From assembly GCF_058153355.1 (NCBI RefSeq), contig NZ_CM177019.1: DNA of 64,000 nt; one strand, written 5' to 3'. Of this stretch, positions 33,887-49,181 are shown piece after piece. Made by a program: the position numbers and the translations under genes. A model generated the notes under the pieces. The model saw only the letters and a list, made by a program, of their open reading frames with translations. It had not been told where the DNA came from and did no database searches. Every line of letters begins with the position of its first letter. Position 1 is the stretch's first letter.

Positions 33887-34606
33887 CTACCATTTTAAAT
33901 AATTACAAGCAGCAGTGTCTGCTCTATATGAACAGTTTATTTTAGCTGCTTCGTAGCCGATTAAACCTATAATGGGGTTATTGTTCTCATTGTCGTTGTA
34001 AATATCTTTTAGGAGGTTATCTCCTTGTTGGCTGGCCCAGCTCTGAGAGTCATTATTAAAATCATAATAATATTTTGCTGAGAGCAGTTGGACGGGTTGC
34101 TCGGTATCTGGCAAAACGCTCCAGATAATAATTTGCTTAACTCTGATGATTTCATTTTCAGCCTGTTTTTTAGCTGCGCTTAAACCTTCTTTCAATTTTG
34201 AATTGTCTGGTTCTTTCTTAAAACAATAAGGATCACTTCCATTGGCGACACAGGCCTCATTGTATTGGTCTATAGAGCGCTTTGCGCTTTCTATCAAACT
34301 GGCGTAGCCATTAGCAAACCGAGTCATTTCCCTTTTCCAAATGCTATTTGTTGCAGATGCCGACATATCACACGTATAAGTAACAGTCTGGTGTCCTTGT
34401 TCATCGGTTCCATCTTCCCATTTAAACAATTCACATCGCTGGCGATGCTCTAATGCAGTCCCAAGGGTTCTGGTTGAGTCTATATTTGATAATACCTGTG
34501 ATTTTATAATTTCCTGATTGTCTGAAGCGGATACATTATCACAGCCAGTAAGAATAAATATTGAGCAACTGATAAACAATCCAATAAGTACTTTTCTTTT
34601 AGACAT
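33887..34606 (-). CDS. Putative lipoprotein
   Basis: 239-aa ORF with signal peptide and lipobox LTGC (MSKRKVLIGLFISCSIFILTGCDN...). Confidence 0.6.
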   Translation of the reverse strand: MSKRKVLIGLFISCSIFILTGCDNVSASDNQEIIKSQVLSNIDSTRTLGTALEHRQRCELFKWEDGTDEQGHQTVTYTCDMSASATNSIWKREMTRFANGYASLIESAKRSIDQYNEACVANGSDPYCFKKEPDNSKLKEGLSAAKKQAENEIIRVKQIIIWSVLPDTEQPVQLLSAKYYYDFNNDSQSWASQQGDNLLKDIYNDNENNNPIIGLIGYEAAKINCSYRADTAACNYLKW

Positions 34607-34682: not shown

Positions 34683-35153
34683 TTAATGAATGAAGGGCAT
34701 ATGTTCGATGCCTGTATAAAGTAAATTGCTCCTGGCATTGATCGTATTGGTCAGACAGGCGTGACTTTCAATTTCTTTACCCATAGAGTTCATGACACTG
34801 ATATGAGCATCAGGCTGACCTTTGTACTCTTCATAAGTGATAGCCATAGCGCCTTCTATATTCTCTCCAGTTCCTCGCAATACAAAGACTCTATTGTCAG
34901 TAACATCATTTGCGGTGATGGACTGCTGCGCTTGACCTGAATGAGTATTCAGTTTGATGACTACGCTGCCTTTATCAGAACTTTTATCCTGTGATTTATA
35001 GGTAATATATACGATGTCTTTTTTATGACTCAGTGTCATAACCCCACCAGTATCAAGTGTGCATTTTAGATCCCAGTTTTCCTGACCAGCCAGTGAAGAA
35101 CTGCTTAACAACATTAGTATATAAAAAGATGCTTTTATTTTTACAATATTCAT
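34683..35153 (-). CDS. Putative secreted protein
   Basis: 156-aa ORF with signal peptide MNIVKIKASFYILMLLSSSSLAGQE. Confidence 0.55.
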   Translation of the reverse strand: MNIVKIKASFYILMLLSSSSLAGQENWDLKCTLDTGGVMTLSHKKDIVYITYKSQDKSSDKGSVVIKLNTHSGQAQQSITANDVTDNRVFVLRGTGENIEGAMAITYEEYKGQPDAHISVMNSMGKEIESHACLTNTINARSNLLYTGIEHMPFIH

Positions 35154-37455: not shown

Positions 37456-37568
37456 CTAGGCTTCCTTAGTATGAGTTTGTTCGGGTGGGTCCATATTGCC
37501 AACCACGCTGGGGCTGTCATACACTGGAAGTAACATTAAAATAAAATCACTTTAGGGATTTACTTTTC

Positions 37569-38450
37569 ATGAAGGATGTGGGTGCGAATTTTTTTGATGA
37601 TTTCTATCTGCAAGTTTGTACCGCTTGTGAGGACAAACTTCTTGAGCTGGAATGGAAACTTGAAGTCGAAAAAAAGGAGAGCAACCAAGATGTTCTGCGC
37701 ACTTACAGGCAAAGAGCCTATGATAAAATTGAAGAATTTAAAATTATTGAGTATTCAAAAATACAATGTCAATATTTTGTAGATATGACTAATAGCGACA
37801 ATATACGCTACTCACAAGAGTTTATAAATGTTGATGGAATAATGGTTGAGAAACCTTTTATTTATAAGGAAACATATGCAGAATATCGGATTGAAATTCG
37901 AGGAAAAATGGACGGGTATAAACTGACAGGATTAGCAAGACTATATGATGCACATTATGAATATATATATCTATCTATGGCTTTAGAAGATTTTTACTGG
38001 GCGCAGTTCCAATATTCATTGGGCAATAAAAAAGAAAGTTGTAAGTTTCTTCTTGATGCTTATTCTTATATGAATGTCTGTATTTCGCGAGATGATAACC
38101 GAGACTCACCGAGTTTTCATCGATTAAGAAGTGGTTTTGATAAAGTATGCAGAAGAGCGCGCTCAAGCGCTGGAGGGAAAAATAAACTTGCAGAACTTGA
38201 ATATATTAAAGATACAGTTGTTATCTTACTTGAAGATATTCCTTCACATAGCGACTGGAAAAATAAACGTCAACTTCTTGAATATTTAATGCCCTATATT
38301 TGTAATAATGATAAAAAGGTCAATCCAGATAAATGGATAAATGATACAGGCGATAGAGAGGAAACTATCCGCCGCAGACTTAATAAATGGTTTACAGGTG
38401 ATCTAAAAGTAGAGATTGATAAAGTCCTAAAGAACAATACTAACAATTAA
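37569..38450 (+). CDS. Hypothetical protein (AT-rich island cargo)
   Basis: 293-aa ORF, no recognisable motif, soluble. Confidence 0.5.
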   Translation: MKDVGANFFDDFYLQVCTACEDKLLELEWKLEVEKKESNQDVLRTYRQRAYDKIEEFKIIEYSKIQCQYFVDMTNSDNIRYSQEFINVDGIMVEKPFIYKETYAEYRIEIRGKMDGYKLTGLARLYDAHYEYIYLSMALEDFYWAQFQYSLGNKKESCKFLLDAYSYMNVCISRDDNRDSPSFHRLRSGFDKVCRRARSSAGGKNKLAELEYIKDTVVILLEDIPSHSDWKNKRQLLEYLMPYICNNDKKVNPDKWINDTGDREETIRRRLNKWFTGDLKVEIDKVLKNNTNN

Positions 38451-38717
38451 TATTATTATGGTTTTGATATTTTTATGTCTATCAGGAGGGCTACTATACG
38501 ATCAGTCTTGATGGGTTTGAAATTACATCGCTATGAAAATACCCCACATAAATCTATTGGAAAACCAATCATTGTTAATATGACTATTGTTATGATGACT
38601 GTTGTAATTGTGTCTACACGAGAAATTGAATGAAATTTATAGGTTTGAAGTAGCCTTAGTGGTAGTCGAAAATAATTATGTAAATGGGCCTGCATTTTGC
38701 AAGAAGGCCCATTTACG

Positions 38718-39047
38718 TCAGGGGTAAATTATATATCCCATAATCGCACAGATTAACCGGTAATCACTCACGTAGAAGATTTCCGGATTCTCAGTGCTTT
38801 GTTCACCGATAAAGAAGACTTGAGCTCTCTCTTTAGCTTTTTTATTTACTGCTTCTTTTGCTTCTTCCTGCACAGTTTCAAGCTCATTCAAAAGCATAGT
38901 CTTTTTGGCTTTTGACCAGTCTCCCCACTCAATGTGTAGTTTATAGCTACGCGAGGGCTTAAACTTACCAGATTCGTCTTTTGCCCATTCTCCCGAGAGC
39001 GGAATGACAATTCGGTTTTCGTCTTGCTCAAATTTCTGCCATAACAA
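38718..39047 (-). CDS. Hypothetical small protein (doubtful)
   Basis: 109-aa ORF beginning with TTG and no RBS; only internal ATG at Met51. Confidence 0.25.
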   Translation of the reverse strand: MLWQKFEQDENRIVIPLSGEWAKDESGKFKPSRSYKLHIEWGDWSKAKKTMLLNELETVQEEAKEAVNKKAKERAQVFFIGEQSTENPEIFYVSDYRLICAIMGYIIYP

Positions 39048-39094
39048 CTGCGAATAAAAAACTCGGCGCTCAGGGTAGGGTTGAACCGGGTCTT

Positions 39095-39628
39095 TTAGTT
39101 TTTTAACACGGTCATGTAAGTATCGGCATTAATACCTGGGATAATTAATGACATACCACGGTCATACGGGAAGCGAATAAATGCCCTACAAATCTGGCGA
39201 ATAGCATTAACCGGGCGGCGGGATTGCCGCGCTGGAGCATTTCCCTCGCTGGATGCCGATGTTGTAGAACGTATTGGATTGGGTTTGTTGTTGTTACCAG
39301 TAGTGTCAGGATCAACAACGGGTCGATTTTCAATCAGTTTTAATCCTGCAGGCATCAAACCTGGTGCGCTATCTAACATGCGGCGGACGCTTTTCTTCTG
39401 CCCCTGTTTAACCACTGTGCTTTCTGCATCAGCATCGCAATTAATGTGCTCTTTTCCAGGCATTTTATTAAACGAAGGTCTTTTCTTACTTCCTTTTTGC
39501 CAAGCAGAAGGATACATCTCAATCCCACATCCCCAGCATACGTAACTGTTCGTATCTACAACATCAAGTAACCAAAGATCTTCTGCCTCAATAATCTCAC
39601 TGGTATATTTATCACGTGCAGATTCCAT
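39095..39628 (-). CDS. Hypothetical protein downstream of the STAND NTPase gene
   Basis: 177-aa ORF with strong RBS AAAGGAGA 4 nt before ATG; 45 bp after the upstream stop; Cys/His cluster CWGCG...HINC. Confidence 0.5.
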   Translation of the reverse strand: MESARDKYTSEIIEAEDLWLLDVVDTNSYVCWGCGIEMYPSAWQKGSKKRPSFNKMPGKEHINCDADAESTVVKQGQKKSVRRMLDSAPGLMPAGLKLIENRPVVDPDTTGNNNKPNPIRSTTSASSEGNAPARQSRRPVNAIRQICRAFIRFPYDRGMSLIIPGINADTYMTVLKN

Positions 39629-39673
39629 GATTTCTCCTTTAAACAGAATTCCTGTGAAGGCGGCTACTAGCCT

Positions 39674-42600
39674 TCATTCAAACCGTTGTTCCAATGCCTC
39701 ATCTTCCAATCGCTCGCGTTCTTTTTCCTTTTCAACCCAGTTAGTCAGTTTTTTATAAACAGCTCTAGCCGACTTAGAAATGTCTGCACGCTCGTGGGTG
39801 ACCAACCGGCCTATCGCTTCAACCCTGGGTTGCATCACGTTCGCACGACTACCGGACCATGATGAAGGTGCTACGTGTTCGGCAAAGATCTCAAGGACGG
39901 CTCGTGGCTCGGGTGAGGCTTCTAGAAATCTCAGAGCATCATCCTGCAAGCAAATAGGACTTTGCTCCCCGTCTTTTGACCATAGATTAATACCTGAAGC
40001 GACTGAAGCCCAAACCTGAGGGTCTTTAGTGGTCCCGCACCATTCAATCAAAATATCTACATCGATTTTCGCAATAGGAGACTGATGTGAATCATCATGA
40101 TTGATGAAATGCAGCCGCCTCTGTTGTTGATCCTCCGTACCATCAAAAATGCGACTGAGAAATTCTTTTGGCATCCATGCAGCGGTGATACCGATAGCGT
40201 CTTCGAAAGAAAAAATGTAGCCAAAATGCTCATCAACAACAGCAAAGATTGTATTCAGCCATTCTAGCTTTTCAGCCTCGTTGCCATCGAAGCGCAATGT
40301 GGCATCGATAACACGTTCCATTGCATAATCCAGATATCCGCCGAGATCGTTGTGATCTCTTTGGAACCTCTGGATTGCAGCGGATAGTCCAATTGTTCGT
40401 AGCGCAAGACCTAGTGTATCCGTAGCATCTCCTTTATCAGGTAGTTTCATACTCAATGCTTCCAATACTACTTCATCACCATTCGGTTTACTCAGCAGCC
40501 TTTGAGCAAGCTCGAGAACCCTGCTTTCTGGCAAATTAGAGAATTGCTCACCCCACAGAATTGCCCCATACATATGGGGCCGTATGTCAGAGTCATCCAG
40601 AAGCGACATGCAACGATCCAGATCGATTTCAGTAAACTCCTGCCAAGGATGTAGGTTGACTAATTCGAATCGAAGTTCGGAATGTTGTGCGCACTGATCG
40701 AGCAGTTCCTGCGCTAATGCTTTATCGATAGAATTCGTCTCTTCTATGAAACCTCGAATAACAGAAAAATCACTTTGAGATTTATGCTGTAGATTCATTT
40801 GAGTGATAAGTTTCTGCCAATAAACTCGTAGGTCAGGTGCTCCTTTAGCTAAGCCTTTACCGAATTCGACGCGATAGGGCATCCCATCTCGTAAGAATAA
40901 ATTAGGGCCTAACTCATCAAGTTCATGCGTGGATACTGCAAAGTCTTGCCCTAACTGGAACGCTTTTGCGTTAAGTATTTCCTTTATTTTTATGAATTTG
41001 TTAGGCCCCTCACGCTCAAAATCGGCATTCAGCGCCCAAAAATCACGCCCCTTACTGAGTACATAAGCCATAACTGCCGGAACCAAGTCATTAGGCTCCA
41101 ATTCTCGTTCCAATGTCACAAGTCCTTCCGGCAAAGGAGCTAAATCTTCGTTGTCATTTCTTTTGGTATGGGAAAAGTAAATTGTTGAGCGGACCGCTTT
41201 CCAGCCTTCACCCCAAGGACGATGGGCATGTAATTTGCGAGCCGCATCAATTAATTTTGACCTCATTCCTTCCTGACGCCAAATCCAGCGAAATTTATTA
41301 GCTAAGATCAGCCGAGCATCATCTTCAAGTTCGGGAACTCTTGAAGTTGCTAATCTCACCACAATGTCGATGAAGGTGATTAGCCACTCAACAAGCTCAT
41401 CGTAGCTGGGTCGAAATCCATAATCTCTTGGCCGAGCACCAAACTCATTAATCCCGAATCCTGTCCACGGTGGTCCGCCGAGAGCAGTTTCAAGCATTTC
41501 GAGCCCCAGCCTTCTACGTCCGGCCATACTTGAACCAATGCATTCATCCATGACCGCAACACGTTGTTCTAAAGAGGCATGGGTACCGGATAGATAAGGT
41601 TGGAAAAACCTCTTTATCTTATTTCGAGCCGAATCATAATTATTGCTCGCGCTTTCCTGATCTGCGATACGGATTAAGAGCTTAATGCATCGTTCAAAGT
41701 ATTTCGATTCATATGCAAGTAACTGCAACAATTTGATAATTGCTGTTCGTTGTGGGTTGTAGCGTGATTTAAAATGCTCAAAATTAGACGTAACAAGTGT
41801 TTCTTCAATCCGCTCAAGCAAAGCTCCCGGGGCGACTGGAGCGACATAATTCAGAATGCGTGTCGAAACATCATCTAGGTCTATTATTTTTCCAAGCAGC
41901 CCTTCGGGCTGTAACCAAGCTTCAACAATCTCTTTAGCCACAGCATGGCTGTGCAATAGTCCCAACCTGTGCGCGAACGACATCAATAATCGTTGTCGAT
42001 CCGGAGCTTCAAAGGTCGTCCTAAGTTGATCAATCGGAATACTATTAAGTGCAGATGCTGCCAACTTGTTAGCAATGGCATGGGGAAGGATGGCTCTCCA
42101 GTGGGATCTTTTCTGAACAACGTGACGTTCCATCAACTTCGTAACAGTTTTGAATAACTGGATTTTGGGATACCCAGAGAGCGCACCCAATATTTCCAGT
42201 TCATCGGTAGCTGCATCTGAACTAGATATTGAGAACGAATACACCAGTGACAATATTTCAGCTTGCTCCCGTAAATGGCCGTCGGGATGATTACGTTGTT
42301 CAAACAAGCGATTAAACAACTGCGCATCTGAAAGTAGGGCTAAACTCTCACCTTCCTCCACTCTTTCCGCTATAGCCAAAGCCACTCTTGCATTCCCATC
42401 TGCGAACTTTGCAATCCGACGGGCATTATTCTGACCAATAGAAGGGAAGCGACGGATAAGAAGTTGCTCTGCCACCTCTGGACCATCTGTCTCAATGTGG
42501 ATGACCTCAGTTGTCTGTGGTTTGTCATCCCTAATGTCGTACTCGATCGTGATGAGACTTACTTCTTTCCCTGCGGCTGATACTTTGCTGGCAAGCGAAG

Positions 42601-43525
42601 CATGGAGTTCTGATGGGCAATTATCAAGGATCATAATTGCTCGTCGGCCTTCAGCGAGCAGGTTATCAAGCATTGCTGTAGCCGACGGTACTGGCTCATA
42701 GCCAGTATCAACATAAATAGCTACTGTCCGGTCAAGCGCATCTGTTCCAACAGTATCATCAAAGAGCGCCTGAACGATTCGAGTCTTCCCAACACCAGAC
42801 AATCCTGTAATACGAACAGCCTTATTCGTCGAACGGATCAGTGCTCGCATTGGGTTAATTGCTTCATCAATTTTGAGTTTTTGCCCCTTTCCCGATGGTA
42901 AAGTAATGGTTACGCTTGGGGCTGAGATTAAAGTGTCTGTAACACCTTGTGGTGGATTGCTCCAGGCTCCGTAGGGTTGCCAACCGGAATACCCTTGCCC
43001 AAGCTTTGCTTTTACCCACAGCATGACTGATGGATGTTGGCGCAACCATTGGATGAGTTTGGAGCGGTCGTAGAAATCAAGATGAAGATAACTTTCGTTA
43101 GGATCATCTTTTACTGCATCTCTCATCGCTTTGAGACGATTCTTCTTTCCTGACGGCGAGCAATCATCACCCAGGCTGACAATGATGTAACTGCCTTGCT
43201 TTCTGGCTTGTTCAGAAATGATGGGAGAAAGTGCTTTTCCGGTGCCAATTTCCCTCTCGATTGCAGCCTTAGGCATCTTATGTTTCTTTGCCTGAAAGAC
43301 CGTATCAGGTCTTACAAGAAAGCCTGCTTTCAGTTGATCAACTGGAACCTGAACATGGATGTCAATTCCTCCGTCAGGGGCTGTAATTGAACCAGACCAA
43401 TTTACACATGCTGGGCTATGGCCGTGCATTGCCACTTCAGCTTCTGCTAGCCGAGCGATCAGCTCTTCCAACTGGATATCGGAGAGCCGAAGTAATTCGT
43501 CCTTTTCAATGTCAAAGATTGCCAC
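39674..43525 (-). CDS. STAND-type P-loop NTPase with N-terminal Mrr-like PD-(D/E)xK nuclease motif (Avs-like candidate)
   Basis: 1283-aa ORF (GTG start); DGGIDIH...VFQAKKH Mrr_cat-like motif near residues 50-80; Walker A GLSGVGKT near residue 245; Walker B-like AIMILDNC; about 900 aa of helical C-terminus. Confidence 0.6.
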   Translation of the reverse strand: MAIFDIEKDELLRLSDIQLEELIARLAEAEVAMHGHSPACVNWSGSITAPDGGIDIHVQVPVDQLKAGFLVRPDTVFQAKKHKMPKAAIEREIGTGKALSPIISEQARKQGSYIIVSLGDDCSPSGKKNRLKAMRDAVKDDPNESYLHLDFYDRSKLIQWLRQHPSVMLWVKAKLGQGYSGWQPYGAWSNPPQGVTDTLISAPSVTITLPSGKGQKLKIDEAINPMRALIRSTNKAVRITGLSGVGKTRIVQALFDDTVGTDALDRTVAIYVDTGYEPVPSATAMLDNLLAEGRRAIMILDNCPSELHASLASKVSAAGKEVSLITIEYDIRDDKPQTTEVIHIETDGPEVAEQLLIRRFPSIGQNNARRIAKFADGNARVALAIAERVEEGESLALLSDAQLFNRLFEQRNHPDGHLREQAEILSLVYSFSISSSDAATDELEILGALSGYPKIQLFKTVTKLMERHVVQKRSHWRAILPHAIANKLAASALNSIPIDQLRTTFEAPDRQRLLMSFAHRLGLLHSHAVAKEIVEAWLQPEGLLGKIIDLDDVSTRILNYVAPVAPGALLERIEETLVTSNFEHFKSRYNPQRTAIIKLLQLLAYESKYFERCIKLLIRIADQESASNNYDSARNKIKRFFQPYLSGTHASLEQRVAVMDECIGSSMAGRRRLGLEMLETALGGPPWTGFGINEFGARPRDYGFRPSYDELVEWLITFIDIVVRLATSRVPELEDDARLILANKFRWIWRQEGMRSKLIDAARKLHAHRPWGEGWKAVRSTIYFSHTKRNDNEDLAPLPEGLVTLERELEPNDLVPAVMAYVLSKGRDFWALNADFEREGPNKFIKIKEILNAKAFQLGQDFAVSTHELDELGPNLFLRDGMPYRVEFGKGLAKGAPDLRVYWQKLITQMNLQHKSQSDFSVIRGFIEETNSIDKALAQELLDQCAQHSELRFELVNLHPWQEFTEIDLDRCMSLLDDSDIRPHMYGAILWGEQFSNLPESRVLELAQRLLSKPNGDEVVLEALSMKLPDKGDATDTLGLALRTIGLSAAIQRFQRDHNDLGGYLDYAMERVIDATLRFDGNEAEKLEWLNTIFAVVDEHFGYIFSFEDAIGITAAWMPKEFLSRIFDGTEDQQQRRLHFINHDDSHQSPIAKIDVDILIEWCGTTKDPQVWASVASGINLWSKDGEQSPICLQDDALRFLEASPEPRAVLEIFAEHVAPSSWSGSRANVMQPRVEAIGRLVTHERADISKSARAVYKKLTNWVEKEKERERLEDEALEQRFE

Positions 43526-43991
43526 ATCCTAACCCTATTAAAGATACTGCGACTATATAAAAAGTTACCCTTATTCTAACCAATGACAGAAGGAATGTCC
43601 CTTAAACCGTTGCAATTAAAACCATTCTCATCAAGTAGTTAAGATTTTCTTACTCAGCACTATGATGTTGATCTTACCCACTTTGCGTCAAACTATTAGT
43701 ATGTATAAAGCACATTGCTGGCCTGATTAAGAAATGGATTGATATGTGAGTTAATGTCATTTATGAGCTTAAAGCTATTTTTAATCCCCTTTGCTTTACA
43801 ACTCTTTATATTATTTCATTCTTATTTACACCAATATTTATTGGTATGATGGTTTAATTTAATTCATTTTTGTTTTTTTGTTTGAAGCACATTGAAAGGA
43901 TATTATTATTTTCTCCTTCATGTTGAAAACAATTTAATTGGGCGGGTTTGGTTCGATATTATTAATATCTTTTTCAAAGAAATTATTTATA

Positions 43992-44000
43992 TGGTATAAT
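43992..44000 (+). promoter_or_regulatory. Candidate extended -10 promoter for the nuclease-helicase operon
   Basis: TGgTATAAT 33 bp upstream of ATG 44033 in an AT-rich divergent intergenic region; RBS AAGAGGG at 44022-44028. Confidence 0.4.
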
Positions 44001-44032
44001 GCAATAAAATCGTATTGAGGTAAGAGGGTACT

Positions 44033-46248
44033 ATGAGTGGATCTTTTGATTTCTTAGCTGGTTCTTTGGCTCTTGAAAATAAACCTTTCCATATGCAGGT
44101 TGCAGAGCTAATAAAAAATAAGTTTCGTCATTGTGAGGGATATATTGGCTATAAGCTTGCAACTTTGGGACGGGCATCGGACTCCGATGTTCCAGATTTT
44201 ATCATTATACAAAAGAACATGGCATAATTTTAGTTGACATGGTTGAAAGTAAGGTTTCTCGTGCGGATGAGGTGCAGGGGAATGAGGTTTGGTATTATGA
44301 GCATGGAGGTTCGAGTGTAGCAAGGAATTTTATTGTCGAGTTGTATGAGGAGGAGGTAAGAAGTAGATTAAAAAACGATGCAAATTTCTACAACAGAAGA
44401 AAAAAAACATGCACAGTTCCGATTACTAGCGCTGTTATTTTTTGTAAAAATAATAATAGTGAGATAGACAATTTCTATCAAGAGTATGCTGATTATGAAA
44501 GTTCAGCTATTGAATATGGCGAGATTGAGAATTGGTTAGATAGCGTTGAAGAAGGGTTCAATTGCGATTCTAAAGTTCTGGGGCGAATTTTTTCATTGTT
44601 AGAGGGGACGTTTATATATGAAAATAAAAAAATTCTCGATGAAGAACCACCCCTTAACACTGTGAATGATTATATCAAAAAATCTCTAAATATAACATTT
44701 AATCAAGATCACTCACAACGTATTGCTTCAATGCAACTAACCCCGGGCCCTCAGAGAATTCGTGGCTTGGCCGGAACAGGTAAGACGATAGTTCTTTCAT
44801 TAAAAGCTGCGATAACGCACAAAAAATTTCCAGATTATAAAATATTATATTTATTTAATACACAAAGCTTATATCAAAATGTGCAGAGTTCAATCGCCAG
44901 ATACTATACTTTAGAAGCCAAAAAAGCGCCAGATTTTGAATCGAATCTAAATGTCTTCCATGCGTGGGGTGGTAGGCAGAAACCGGGACTGTATTCATAT
45001 ATTTGCCAACAGTATGGATTAACTCCACTAACATTAGGAGATGTACGTGGAGCAAGTGATGCCTTAGCTGTCATATATGCAGAACTTCTCAAAAAAATCG
45101 GTGGTGATATAAAGCCTGAATATGATCTTATTTTAATAGATGAAGCCCAAGATTTTCCTAAAGAGTTGTTTGAAGTGGTCTTTAAACTAGCAAAGGGCAA
45201 ACCTCATGAGAAAAGGATCGTTTGGGCGTATGATGAATTCCAGTCATTGAAAGACACTCAAATTAAAGGTCCATCTGAGCTATTTGGTTTGGCCAAAGAT
45301 GGCACCCCAAATATGAGTGATGATGTTTTAGATGGATTCTATCCTGGTGACATAAAAAAAGATATTGTTTTATCCAATTGCTATAGGACTCCTCGTCCTG
45401 CTCTTATGACTGCTCACGGAGTAGCATTAGGACTTTATACTAATAAGCCGAATGAAATGTTTTATAACCATGATGAATGGAAAGCTATTGGCTATAAAGT
45501 TTTAAATCCTCAGACAAAAATCATTGCAAAAGGCAATGATGTGCAAATAGAGAGACCTAATGAAAATAGTCTAAATCTGTTGGAAGGAATTATGACAGAG
45601 CAGGGTAAGAGGGCCCTTAACCTTATCCAGACTAAGGTGGAAAATGATCGGGAAAGTCAATATGAATATATTGCAAGTAACATCAAACGTTTAATTGATG
45701 AGGAAAATGTCTCGCCTGAAGAAATAGTCATAATTAATTTGAAGTCCTCTAGTAACAAAGATGAGATGCTACGCATTCAATTCATCTTAAATAATTACGG
45801 TATTCACTCTGTAATTCCCGGTTACGTTGAAAGCTCAGATGTCTTTAAACCCAAGGGGTTCGTTACAATCACAACCCCTTTCAGGGCTAAAGGGAATGAA
45901 GCTAATATTGTATTTATTTTAAATAGCCAGTTAGTTGTTAATGATTTTTCATTAAGGATGCGTAATGCATTTTTTGTAGCAGTAACTCGAACAAGAGGAT
46001 GGTGTTATATTGTTGGTTATGGAGAAAAAATGCAAATGCTTGTGGACGAAATTTCAGGAATCAAAAGAGATTTCCCTATATTTAATTTCATTTGTCCTGA
46101 CCCTGATGATGTCAAAGCACGAAAAAGTTATCTCCACAAATCAGACTCTGAGATCAATGAGATGCAAAGAGTACTGGATTTAGTTAATAATAACGAAGAG
46201 TTAAGACGACTGCTACAGGAGCAGCTCATTGATAAGAAAGGAGATTAA
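44033..46248 (+). CDS. PD-(D/E)xK/NERD-like nuclease fused to SF1 (UvrD-like) helicase, apparently frameshifted (Nhi-like candidate)
   Basis: Track ORFs 44033-44227 (64 aa) and 44239-46248 (669 aa) join by a 1-nt shift in an A4 run at 44211-44214; helicase motifs GLAGTGKT, LILIDEAQDF, NCYRTPRP, TPFRAKGNEANIVFIL, VAVTRTRGW; N-terminal D...ExK (PDFIII...VDMVESK). Confidence 0.65.
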
Positions 46249-46250
46249 AA

Positions 46251-46922
46251 TTGAATTTCTCATTAGTGCAGCAAAGCTTAAACCATGTCGAAGCACTTTT
46301 AAAACCTGTAACTCAACAAAAATTAATAGAGTTTAAAGAAAGAGAGAAGGTCATAAGTTGGACAAATAGGAAGCCAGGAATTTACAATGAAGTCTACTAT
46401 CCTATTGAATATCAATGTGTAATTGATGCAAGGCAGTACTCATTATTGCTTCGAGATGGCGATTTTTTTCAATTTTTTTATGAGTTTGATGCGAAAACTG
46501 GCAATCTGAAGAAAGCTAAGTTGGCTTTCTATCCCTCACCAATTGATTGTAGAAATTCGTTGGATGATCTCAATGAAGCAGCTGAATTTGCTTTTGATCA
46601 TAATGAAGAACTCTATAATCATCTTGATAATTGGATTTCGCTATTGGAAATAAAAAACTATTTTCCAGCAAATACATCTCAAGTTAGATTTGATTATGAT
46701 AGTACGGTTACTACACATGAGAAAGCACATCTGCAGTTTAGTAGTGTAAATAAACTTAGACTTCCGGCTGACTTTTTTCCTTTGCCATATGCATTTGTAT
46801 TAATGGTTTCTGATCTTATTAATGGATGCTCAAAGGTAGATGCTAGACATATAAGCTTTACTAAGAGAAACAGCCTAAGATCAAATGTTTCTAATAGAAT
46901 CATAACCTTGAAATCACAGTGA
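46251..46922 (+). CDS. Hypothetical protein, translationally coupled partner of the nuclease-helicase
   Basis: 223-aa ORF with TTG start 3 nt after the upstream stop; RBS AAAGGAG at 46238-46244. Confidence 0.5.
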   Translation: MNFSLVQQSLNHVEALLKPVTQQKLIEFKEREKVISWTNRKPGIYNEVYYPIEYQCVIDARQYSLLLRDGDFFQFFYEFDAKTGNLKKAKLAFYPSPIDCRNSLDDLNEAAEFAFDHNEELYNHLDNWISLLEIKNYFPANTSQVRFDYDSTVTTHEKAHLQFSSVNKLRLPADFFPLPYAFVLMVSDLINGCSKVDARHISFTKRNSLRSNVSNRIITLKSQ

Positions 46923-46925
46923 ATT

Positions 46926-46961
46926 AACAAGCCTCTTTTATAAGGATATAAGAGGCTTGTT
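46926..46961 (+). terminator. Rho-independent terminator-like hairpin after the two-gene module
   Basis: AACAAGCCTCTT / AAGAGGCTTGTT 12-bp stem followed by ATTATTT. Confidence 0.5.
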
Positions 46962-47372
46962 ATTATTTCGCTAAATCTGATCACTGTCGAGAATTGATTG
47001 ATTTTTTGTGATTATTTATTCCATTCTGAGTTCATTGCCGATTTTATATGTATGTATTTTGTATCGGCTTATCTTGGCTTATTAAGTCTAGCATCACACA
47101 ATGCTTTTCAGGAAATCATCTTACCTATTAACCATATTATTACCGGCCCAACATTTCTCGCATTTACAGCTGGTAGCTCCTGTGTGTAAACGCTATTAAT
47201 CTCATACTCATTGGTTTAATATTAACTTTGAACTTCTGGAGTGCAGATCACCAATCCTAATATTACTACTAAATAGCTGCGCCTAATAACGCGACACCCG
47301 CCGTTTACTGTCTGGTGGCTTAACCTGCAAGGGCTGGCTGAAAGTGGGACACTATTCCGCGCAGCTATTTAG

Positions 47373-48614
47373 TCACCCAACTAGCTTCATTCCTTTTATC
47401 CCACCTTCAATCATGCTTCCACGATCCGCTGCCATCACAAAATTTGCCCACCATTGCATCATCGGGCGACGCTGTTCCAGGTAATCGCTGCGGTTATAAG
47501 CACGACGAACCTCATTCTTATCCACATGGGCCAATGCTGCCTCAATGACATCAGGCGGAAAGCCTTGTTCATTAAGAGCCGTACTGGCAATTGATCTCAG
47601 ACCATGCGAAACAAGCACACCACCAAAACCTGCGCGTTTTAGTGAGGCGTTAACAGTCTGACTGTTCATTGGCTGGTTGGGCTTGATACGGCTGGGAAAG
47701 ATAAATTCTCGGTTGCCGCTTAGCGGTTTCATCATCTCCAGCACAGCTATTGCTTCATCTGACAATGGAACAGTATGATCGCGGTTCATTTTCATGCGTG
47801 CTGCAGGAATCTTCCACTCTCGCGCTTCTATGTCTACCTCTTCCCAGCGAGCTTCAGCCGCTTCGGCAGGGCGGGTAATAGTAAGAAGTTGCCACATGAA
47901 CAGGCAGCGTGTGGAAAGGCTAATGCTGGCTGTTCGCATTGTCTGCATCAATTGAGGTAGCTGATCCGGTCGAATGCTGGGCATGTTCTTTTTCTGAGGC
48001 TTCTCGAAGGCTTTACCGATATTAACGCTGGGAACAGCATCAATCAGCCCTGTGTTTTGGGCATAGATCATGACCTCATTAATGCGCTGACACAGGCGAC
48101 GAACGGTTTCCAGTGCTCCTCTGGCCTGAACTGGTTGGACGGCCTGAACCAGTGTGTGTGCTTTAATATCTGTAACGCTAATGTCGCCAATTGCAGGAAA
48201 GACATCTCTCTCAAGAGAGCGCCAGATATCCTCTGCGTAGTCTTCGGTCACACTGGCTTTCTTCACATTCCACCAACGTTCAGCCACGAGCTGGAAAGTA
48301 TTGGTTTTAGCTTCCAGCGAACTGCGAAGTTGTTCTTGTTGATGTTCCTGGGGATCAATTTGTTTCGCCAGAAGAGAGCGGGACTCTGCCCGATAGTTTC
48401 GGGCATCGGCAAGGGTAACTGACGGGTAGGGGCCTATGCTCTTCTTCGCACGTTTCTTAGTGACAGGGCGAATGTAGCGAAACTGCCAGATTTTACTTCC
48501 GCTGGATTTGATGAGTAGCTCAAGGCCATCACCATCATAGAGAACGTAGTCCGCTTCTTTGGGTTTGGCGGATTCGATTTCTTTAACGGATAGAGGTTTG
48601 GTTTGTCTTGCCAT
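47373..48614 (-). CDS. intA: P4-type tyrosine integrase (IntA/SlpA family)
   Basis: 413-aa ORF MARQTKPLSVKEIESAKPKEADYVLYDGDGLELLIKSSGSKIWQFRY...; C-terminal catalytic region; adjacent to ssrA. Confidence 0.9.
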   Translation of the reverse strand: MARQTKPLSVKEIESAKPKEADYVLYDGDGLELLIKSSGSKIWQFRYIRPVTKKRAKKSIGPYPSVTLADARNYRAESRSLLAKQIDPQEHQQEQLRSSLEAKTNTFQLVAERWWNVKKASVTEDYAEDIWRSLERDVFPAIGDISVTDIKAHTLVQAVQPVQARGALETVRRLCQRINEVMIYAQNTGLIDAVPSVNIGKAFEKPQKKNMPSIRPDQLPQLMQTMRTASISLSTRCLFMWQLLTITRPAEAAEARWEEVDIEAREWKIPAARMKMNRDHTVPLSDEAIAVLEMMKPLSGNREFIFPSRIKPNQPMNSQTVNASLKRAGFGGVLVSHGLRSIASTALNEQGFPPDVIEAALAHVDKNEVRRAYNRSDYLEQRRPMMQWWANFVMAADRGSMIEGGIKGMKLVG

Positions 48615-48818: not shown

Positions 48819-49181
48819 TGGTGGAGCTGGCGGGAGTTGAACCCGCGTCCGAAATTCCTACATCCTCGGTACTACATGCTTAGTCAGTCTTTACATTCGC
48901 TTGCCAGCTGCGGACGGACACGCCACTAACAAACTAGCCTGATTAAGTTTTAACGCTTCAACCCCAGGCAGGGCTTCCACGCGATCTCTTTTGGGTTTGA
49001 CCTCTCTTGATCCCCGTCCTAAGAGCGGAGGCTAGGGAGAGAGGGCTCTAAGCAGGTTATTAAGCTGCTAAAGCGTAGTTTTCGTCGTTTGCGACTATTT
49101 TTTGCGGCTTTTTACGAGGCCAACCGCCCCTCGGCATGCACCTTGGGTTTCGCAAATCCCGTCGAATCCAGAATCAGCCCC
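48819..49181 (-). ncRNA. ssrA: tmRNA (SsrA)
   Basis: Reverse complement reads GGGGCTGATTCTGGATTCGACGGGATTTGCG...GTTCAACTCCCGCCAGCTCCACCA (363 nt), with the tag-peptide reading frame region. Confidence 0.95.

Follow-up and report, generated by a model that had tools for sequence, protein, structure and literature searches.

Does a hypothetical gene that borders a cluster of anti-phage genes belong to that cluster, or to the island that carries it? The question is raised by an AT-rich open reading frame (ORF) at 37569..38450 of a 64,000-nucleotide stretch of DNA (NCBI RefSeq assembly GCF_058153355.1, contig NZ_CM177019.1), hereafter referred to as the window. The original prediction had placed this ORF on the plus strand, divergent from the regulatory gene alpA and convergent with a STAND operon, and had presented it as an orphan, horizontally acquired cargo gene, such as one encoding an abortive-infection or anti-defence protein. 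The layout was found to be exact, the ORF being divergent from alpA across a 113-bp spacer and convergent with the two genes of the defence system PD-Lambda-4. As to its identity, the ORF very probably belongs to the YfjH superfamily and lies at the int/alpA end of the island, on the border of a defence hotspot, where it is neither a part of PD-Lambda-4 nor freely swappable cargo. More tentatively, we propose that it encodes a regulatory partner in the int/alpA excision switch, the gene being a fixed third component of the P4-type integrase/AlpA module.

Judging from its sequence, the ORF is a genuine gene under selection and not a chance frame, because an open frame of 293 codons is improbable at such a base composition (approx. 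2e-10 per start, by our own estimate) and because the ratio of non-synonymous to synonymous divergence (dN/dS) across ORF alleles is 0.23–0.36. Its GC content is 0.337 (0.263 at third codon positions, GC3), against 0.43–0.50 for alpA, the GTPase gene beyond it, PD-Lambda-4_A and int, in agreement with the expectation of an AT-rich, horizontally acquired gene in a genomic island, next to defence genes. At an identity of at least 95%, the ORF is carried by 148 of 5426 complete Escherichia coli genomes, always on the chromosome and labelled in RefSeq as a hypothetical protein; 146 of these copies span at least 80% of the gene. The region of the window is 99.8% identical to that of E. coli R32_14_1F. 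Distant blastn searches of the complete E. coli genomes with the ORF returned the window's allele only, and the other alleles considered here come from draft or metagenome assemblies or from annotation. The encoded protein has no hydrophobic segment (maximum Kyte–Doolittle 19-mer, 0.73), and scans against Pfam, NCBIfam and PADLOC gave zero matches, which bears out the earlier statement that neither a transmembrane helix nor a catalytic motif can be recognized. The best match in PHROGs had an E-value of only 0.063, and sequence searches of the PDB with protein and profile queries gave E-values of 0.5 or worse. Across PHROGs, a tblastn search of phage records, BFVD and the PDB, no confident match to a phage structural or housekeeping family was obtained.

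The description of the ORF as an orphan did not survive: it has a small family and a homologue, YfjH, in E. coli K-12. Sequence comparison identifies it as a divergent member of the YfjH superfamily, new to a known, uncharacterized and small family restricted to Enterobacterales. A BLASTP comparison with K-12 YfjH gave an E-value of 3e-6 over 127 aligned residues in the C-terminal part (27% identity), full-length identity being only approximately 17%, and an hhalign comparison of the two families gave an E-value of 6e-5 over 143 columns (probability 65%). A hidden Markov model (HMM) of the ORF family and its distant representatives gives 25–38 bits for 16 of 16 YfjH-family members; conversely, two intermediate proteins (P0038 and P0026) score 38–41 bits with the YfjH HMM. 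The families are bridged by a protein of 240 residues from E. coli PapM-32-1, which scores 88 bits against one family HMM and 48 bits against the other. Their joint alignment is colinear end to end and holds common motifs, namely F-[YF]-W-G, S/G-x-G-G-K-x-K (with a variant S-S-x-G-G-K-x-K), P-x-x-G-W-K-x-K (with a variant P-E-G-G-W-K-S-K), W-S and a basic C-terminal tail. Residues W144, G202, G203, W230, K233 and W274 are conserved in at least 90% of 37 sequences of both families, and the alignment of ORF-family alleles alone (A1) contains 69 invariant columns. Over the C-terminal 100–150 residues, homology to YfjH is thus firm; that of the N-terminal half, which profile methods do not align, rests on the colinearity of the joint alignment.

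The position of K-12 yfjH (b2623, in the cryptic prophage CP4-57) is the same as that of the ORF: between intA and alpA, divergent from alpA, in an element inserted at ssrA, with the arrangement intA(+) yfjH(−) alpA(+). However, K-12 yfjH abuts intA without cargo, whereas approximately 9 kb of defence genes separate the ORF from int in the window. The K-12 protein is annotated with 318 residues; most YfjH relatives have approximately 292, the same size as the ORF product, which suggests an N-terminal extension in the K-12 annotation. In a word-indexed search, 5.8 billion proteins yielded 19 clusters, from E. coli, Citrobacter koseri and Photorhabdus. No homologue of the ORF was found by tblastn in 50,697 phage records, nor in 72,556 plasmid records. 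A Pfam scan of 37 members with E-values up to 10 assigned DUF2585 to 12 YfjH-family members; its best E-value was 4.9e-5, and K-12 YfjH fell below the cut-off. As DUF2585 has no assigned function, the assignment was set aside.

The evidence that the ORF belongs to the island rather than to its cargo comes from the comparison of loci. In all of the 24 loci scanned by tblastn, an AlpA homologue directly precedes the family gene in divergent orientation, as it does by annotation in every later locus; the spacing between the two genes is approximately 110–150 bp in every homologous locus examined, down to approximately 26% identity. Loci that were seeded by the integrase or the backbone, and not by the ORF, also hold a family member beside alpA. 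(Distant blastn matches of the GTPase–alpA backbone were dominated by YfjP-family paralogues.) In more distant relatives, int, yfjH-like gene and alpA form triads without intervening genes, at 17–250 bp from int: such triads were seen in K-12, in strain A0 34/86 (seeded by int), in a Citrobacter amalonaticus genome and in three lineages that are approximately 26% identical or detectable by profile only. As these triads lack cargo while the cargo varies elsewhere, the conserved unit is int/yfjH-like gene/alpA.

In the window's island family, int and the yfjH-like gene converge, and the defence cargo occupies the gap between their 3' ends, in which at least eight different sets were seen. These are PD-Lambda-4 with or without a helicase/DUF2290 pair (the window and its relatives); Hachiman; CTD2/MComp1/SMC with a KAP NTPase; a metallo-β-lactamase (MBL) with trypsin-HamA, a helicase and a tetratricopeptide repeat protein; several TIR proteins with a patatin; a set containing leucine-rich repeats; an Eco57I-like restriction–modification (RM) gene with an ABC-three-component system (ABC-3C); and, after an IS1 insertion, an XRE-type pair. 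In no locus examined was the ORF replaced by other cargo. Contrary to the original prediction, it therefore does not behave as swappable cargo, since it stays beside alpA while its neighbours are replaced in at least eight ways, and is also present in islands without cargo. To judge from these loci, the ORF forms the border of a defence hotspot on the alpA side, its 3' part being a recombination transition zone. The features of this end of the island are listed in table 1.

Table 1. Features of the int/alpA end of the island in the window (a strand is given where the feature is a gene).
Feature	Position	Strand	Evidence or remark
alpA, AlpA/excisionase-family helix-turn-helix (HTH) regulator, 79 aa	37216..37455	−	Pfam Phage_AlpA, E 2.8e-21
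Shared divergent control region, 113 bp	37456..37568		between alpA and the yfjH-like gene
yfjH-superfamily gene	37569..38450	+	ATG-initiated ORF, 293 codons; ORF listing and translation
Variable defence cargo, lying 3' of both the yfjH-like gene and int	38451..47372		PADLOC, Pfam
PD-Lambda-4_B, frameshifted	38718..39628	−	PADLOC, approx. 1e-113
PD-Lambda-4_A/Avs8 STAND	39674..43525	−	PADLOC, E 0
UvrD-like helicase	44239..46248	+	PADLOC 'Helicase', E 1.8e-108
DUF2290 protein	46251..46922	+	Pfam
P4-type tyrosine integrase (int)	47373..48614	−	Pfam Arm-DNA-bind_3, Phage_int_M and Phage_integrase
ssrA (tmRNA), island integration site	48819..49181	−	ARAGORN; same layout in annotated E. coli genomes

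The coupling to alpA extends to the DNA between the two genes. In an alignment of seven alleles, the spacer, which also holds the alpA ribosome-binding site, is well conserved and includes invariant blocks. It contains a promoter-like TTGCCA-N18-TACACT for the ORF at 37496–37525 on the plus strand (a consensus match) and a conserved AGGGATTTACTTTT at 37554–37567, directly 5' of the ATG. TTGCC and TTTACTTTT are kept, again as consensus matches, in the distant loci L020, L021 and L026, whose proteins are 26–38% identical. The conservation of the AGGrTTTACTTTTnATG element exceeds the needs of a ribosome-binding site, and the AGGrTTTACTTTT stretch could be a translational or regulator-binding element. 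Two further candidates were dropped. An imperfect inverted repeat in the spacer (37461–37474/37517–37530) was considered as an operator; its conservation needs no such explanation, because it overlaps the alpA ribosome-binding site and the −10-like hexamer. The other candidate, a strong promoter-like minus-strand site within the ORF (37772→37743), probably reflects AT-rich noise, 11 such sites being found versus 6.6 expected.

The divergence of the ORF differs from that of the island around it. Relative to the window, islands with other cargo have backbone proteins of 79–96% identity and ORF products of only 56–59%; where the cargo is the same, as in C. koseri, the ORF product is 86% identical. 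At the nucleotide level, identity is approximately 95% in the GTPase gene; within the ORF, it drops to approximately 75% over the first two thirds and to approximately 55% over the last third, and none is left past the stop codon. ORF alleles associated with different cargo differ by a synonymous divergence (dS) of 0.85–1.13 (dN/dS 0.24–0.34), versus 0.14–0.31 (dN/dS 0.12–0.56) for the backbone genes of the same island pairs. Some alleles are mosaic, such as the pair L002 and L010, for which dS rises from 0.29 in the N-terminal to 1.33 in the C-terminal half. These values argue that the ORF is under purifying selection, and that its alleles are far older than the backbone (dS approx. 1 versus approx. 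0.25) and were exchanged together with the cargo. Such a pattern is expected of a gene that flanks a recombination hotspot, and equally of specificity determinants such as immunity repressors. In E. coli PapM-32-1 (L028, 13371..14093), the alpA slot is occupied by a YfjH-superfamily protein of 240 residues that is only 27% identical to the ORF product; the GTPase gene of this backbone is 96% identical to the window's and the 5' end of alpA differs, as though the regulatory region next to alpA had been replaced as a cassette.

The protein itself is predicted to be soluble and all-helical apart from one β-hairpin. Two AlphaFold2 (AF2) models were obtained, the first with a mean predicted local distance difference test (pLDDT) of 74 and the second, based on a deeper alignment of 37 sequences, with a pLDDT of 83 and a predicted template modelling score (pTM) of 0.64. 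The predicted layout comprises an N-terminal helical hairpin (residues 7–65), a β-hairpin (85–94) and a helix bundle (103–291). Residues 1–180 are acidic (isoelectric point (pI) approx. 4.8) and residues 181–293 basic (pI 8.8–9.9); the conserved motifs are EDFYWAQFQY, SSxGGKNK, W230-K-x-K233 and W274. A Foldseek search of the AF2 model against BFVD, a set of predicted viral structures, gave no match at an E-value of 0.001 or below, the best being 0.42. From its charge and conservation only, the C-terminal domain may be suspected to bind nucleic acid.

What could such a protein do beside alpA? According to the reading that we tentatively favour, it would be the island's own regulatory partner of AlpA. 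The acidic N-terminal helical hairpin would serve in oligomerization or sensing, and the basic C-terminal domain, with its GGKxK and W-K-x-K motifs, conserved tryptophan and basic tail, would contact nucleic acid or the transcription or recombination machinery at the shared alpA control region. The YfjH-like protein would thereby set whether alpA, and hence int-mediated excision, is switched on. Several observations weigh against this proposal. Scans of Pfam and related collections detected no HTH or other DNA-binding domain or fold in the protein. Divergence among ORF alleles follows the neighbouring cargo but neither AlpA nor Int, which do not co-vary with the ORF; Int can be 97% identical at loci whose ORF products are 57% identical or unalignable. 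The family is tiny: an exhaustive profile search of 1.84 billion representatives returned 23 matches, all of them family members or fragments, and an A1-based scan of 100,044 species genomes was positive for three, so that most int–alpA elements must work without a YfjH-like gene. Truncated copies are tolerated, IS1 having cut the ORF in two strains to 263 and 184 codons. Lastly, the sole experimental hint for any family member is the blocking of a toxin, not regulation.

The ORF resembles the master repressors of islands and phages in being divergent from the excision or activator gene, in adjoining int and in its hypervariability among related elements. Stl is the master repressor of the staphylococcal pathogenicity islands (SaPIs), and a comparable pair, AlpR–alpA, exists in Pseudomonas aeruginosa; both Stl and AlpR have HTH DNA-binding domains, to which AlpR adds a LexA-like cleavage domain. 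Like their genes, the ORF adjoins int, is divergent from an excision or activation gene and is of comparable size; as with Stl, its alleles diverge extremely among islands that are otherwise alike. In contrast to them, it has no detected HTH or LexA-like domain and no sequence or fold similarity to either, and int is convergent with it, not co-oriented. A more specific version of the regulatory reading, which on present evidence we regard as quite improbable, would make YfjH-superfamily proteins the specificity or 'immunity' determinant of CP4-57-type islands: a Stl-like sensor-repressor of new fold would hold alpA off until bound by a protein of a helper phage or conjugative element. If so, the match between helper and induced island, and thus the choice of the defence cargo that is mobilized, would be encoded by the allelic diversity (27% identity on 96%-identical backbones).

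Another positional parallel is offered by the PIME1 int–alpA elements of Enterobacterales, in which excision and transfer depend on alpA, int and a divergent LuxR-family regulator (bioRxiv 10.64898/2026.01.12.698999). These elements resemble the window's island in that a second gene of the regulatory region diverges from alpA, and in their large, defence-rich accessory regions. However, no LuxR/GerE domain was detected in the ORF product, and the analogy is positional only; the backbones differ as well, with repA, trbJ and trbL in PIME1 and YfjI/DUF3987, a Gp2-like protein, a YfjP-like GTPase and a WYL regulator in the window's island.

Among the alternatives to a regulatory partner of AlpA, the one that fares best, although we hold it unlikely, is that the ORF is an accessory conflict gene, acting in abortive infection or defence, or else in anti-defence or toxin neutralization, and is merely the oldest and most anchored occupant of the int–alpA slot. 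This would suit its location in exactly the slot where defence systems accumulate, its AT-richness and deep allelic divergence, both expected of conflict genes, the tie of each allele to a particular cargo set, and the patchy and optional occurrence of the YfjH family. We found nothing mechanistic on this family in the literature; K-12 yfjH is, however, among the overexpressed prophage genes that relieved the toxicity of RcaT of retron-Sen2 in a TIC screen (bioRxiv 10.1101/2020.06.22.160242; restated in PMC11951105). This is a single overexpression result from a screen in which non-specific blockers are common. Moreover, a conflict gene would have to be reconciled with the lack of any PADLOC match, with the persistence of the ORF in every locus, including those from which other cargo is absent, and with its constant coupling to alpA through a conserved divergent control region. 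Nor would one expect an anti-defence gene to have no homologue among phages and plasmids, and the dN/dS of approximately 0.3 gives no whole-gene sign of positive selection. The other reports on K-12 yfjH concern its expression: it is transcribed in vitro preferentially by σS RNA polymerase (PMC3141248), and rises two-fold upon acid shift (PMC2270276).

It is very improbable that the ORF is a functionless, decaying frame, kept as a hitch-hiker by the flanking recombination hotspot. The gradient of nucleotide identity that vanishes past its stop codon, the mosaic alleles and the IS1-truncated copies would all fit such a frame. Against this, the frame is open in all alleles, with approximately 290 residues kept down to 26% identity and nearly all E. 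coli copies spanning at least 80% of the gene; dN/dS stays low at saturating dS, and neither the invariant columns of A1 nor the confident AF2 model would be expected of a decaying gene. Least credible of all is that the ORF serves the adjacent PD-Lambda-4, e.g. in a regulatory role or as its third component: the ORF does directly adjoin this system in convergent orientation, and its allele group is linked to it in both E. coli and C. koseri, but the comparative data effectively refute the idea, as neither of the PADLOC models for the two genes that define PD-Lambda-4 matches the ORF, as homologues 54–59% identical to it adjoin Hachiman, TIR/patatin, CTD2–MComp1–SMC, MBL–HamA–helicase or RM plus ABC-3C genes and distant ones no defence genes at all, and as the ORF is intact in the window though PD-Lambda-4_B is frameshifted.

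The hotspot itself recalls those of P4-like satellites and P2-like phages (Rousset et al. 2022, as cited elsewhere; bioRxiv 10.64898/2026.02.27.708500): there too, a conserved core gene borders a site of anti-phage system exchange near a P4-type integrase. The border in the window likewise shows a divergence gradient and mosaicism. The element type and the flanking gene are different, however, and the flank itself is highly polymorphic, with members only 27% identical on 96%-identical backbones. In Enterobacterales, anti-phage systems commonly reside on CP4-57-like islands, whether inserted at ssrA or elsewhere, and the landmark pair formed by a yfjH-like gene and int provides a simple way of mining a defence hotspot. 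Reading the hypothetical gene beside alpA as a relative of YfjH also gives K-12 yfjH a testable role, and takes the ORF off the list of candidate new defence genes, barring experimental evidence to the contrary. Should its product prove to be an island sensor or repressor, this would explain how such islands choose when to move.

The island as a whole is CP4-57-like and inserted at ssrA. From there, the order is int, defence cargo, ORF and alpA, followed by a gene for a YfjP-like GTPase, a WYL/HTH regulator, two hypothetical genes and an HTH gene, and then by YfjI (DUF3987), a Gp2/YfjJ-like gene, DUF932, RadC, DUF987, YeeU/CbtA and ypjA. The window's AlpA is 64% identical to that of K-12. The two hypothetical backbone genes, between the WYL regulator and the HTH gene (33887..34606, minus strand, 239 aa; 34683..35153, minus strand, 156 aa), occur in all islands of the window's family, and their products have no credible match in Pfam, NCBIfam, PADLOC or PHROGs. 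Farther along, an IS66-family element with three transposase ORFs (30070..32433, minus strand; 32480..33244, plus strand; GC 0.53–0.60) lies inside yfjI/DUF3987, of which the C-terminal part alone remains in the window, so that the putative replication/primase gene of the island is broken in this strain. Most of the 148 E. coli carriers (e.g. GN4143 and GPEC548, loci L029 and L030) hold a remnant of the island, in which an IS3 element truncates the GTPase gene and only the truncated GTPase gene, alpA, the ORF, PD-Lambda-4 and int are kept.

Within the cargo, PD-Lambda-4, since renamed Avs8, has been described as a STAND NTPase that senses major capsid proteins (2026 preprint). In the window, a 1-bp deletion in a T run (approx. 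39106/39107) splits PD-Lambda-4_B into ORFs of 177 and 109 residues, the gene of R32_14_1F being intact (303 aa); the system may thus be inactive in the window's strain, or the deletion may be a sequencing error. The helicase and DUF2290 pair (44239..46922) is also found in E. coli FEX669 and is exchanged in R32_14_1F for a single 3.7-kb ORF, so that cargo turnover occurs on the int side too. The window's integrase has no match of at least 99% identity among complete E. coli genomes, the best being 96.8%, in FEX669. In most carriers of the window's ORF allele, the integrase is only 91% identical to that of the window, and the two ends of the cargo slot therefore differ in history.

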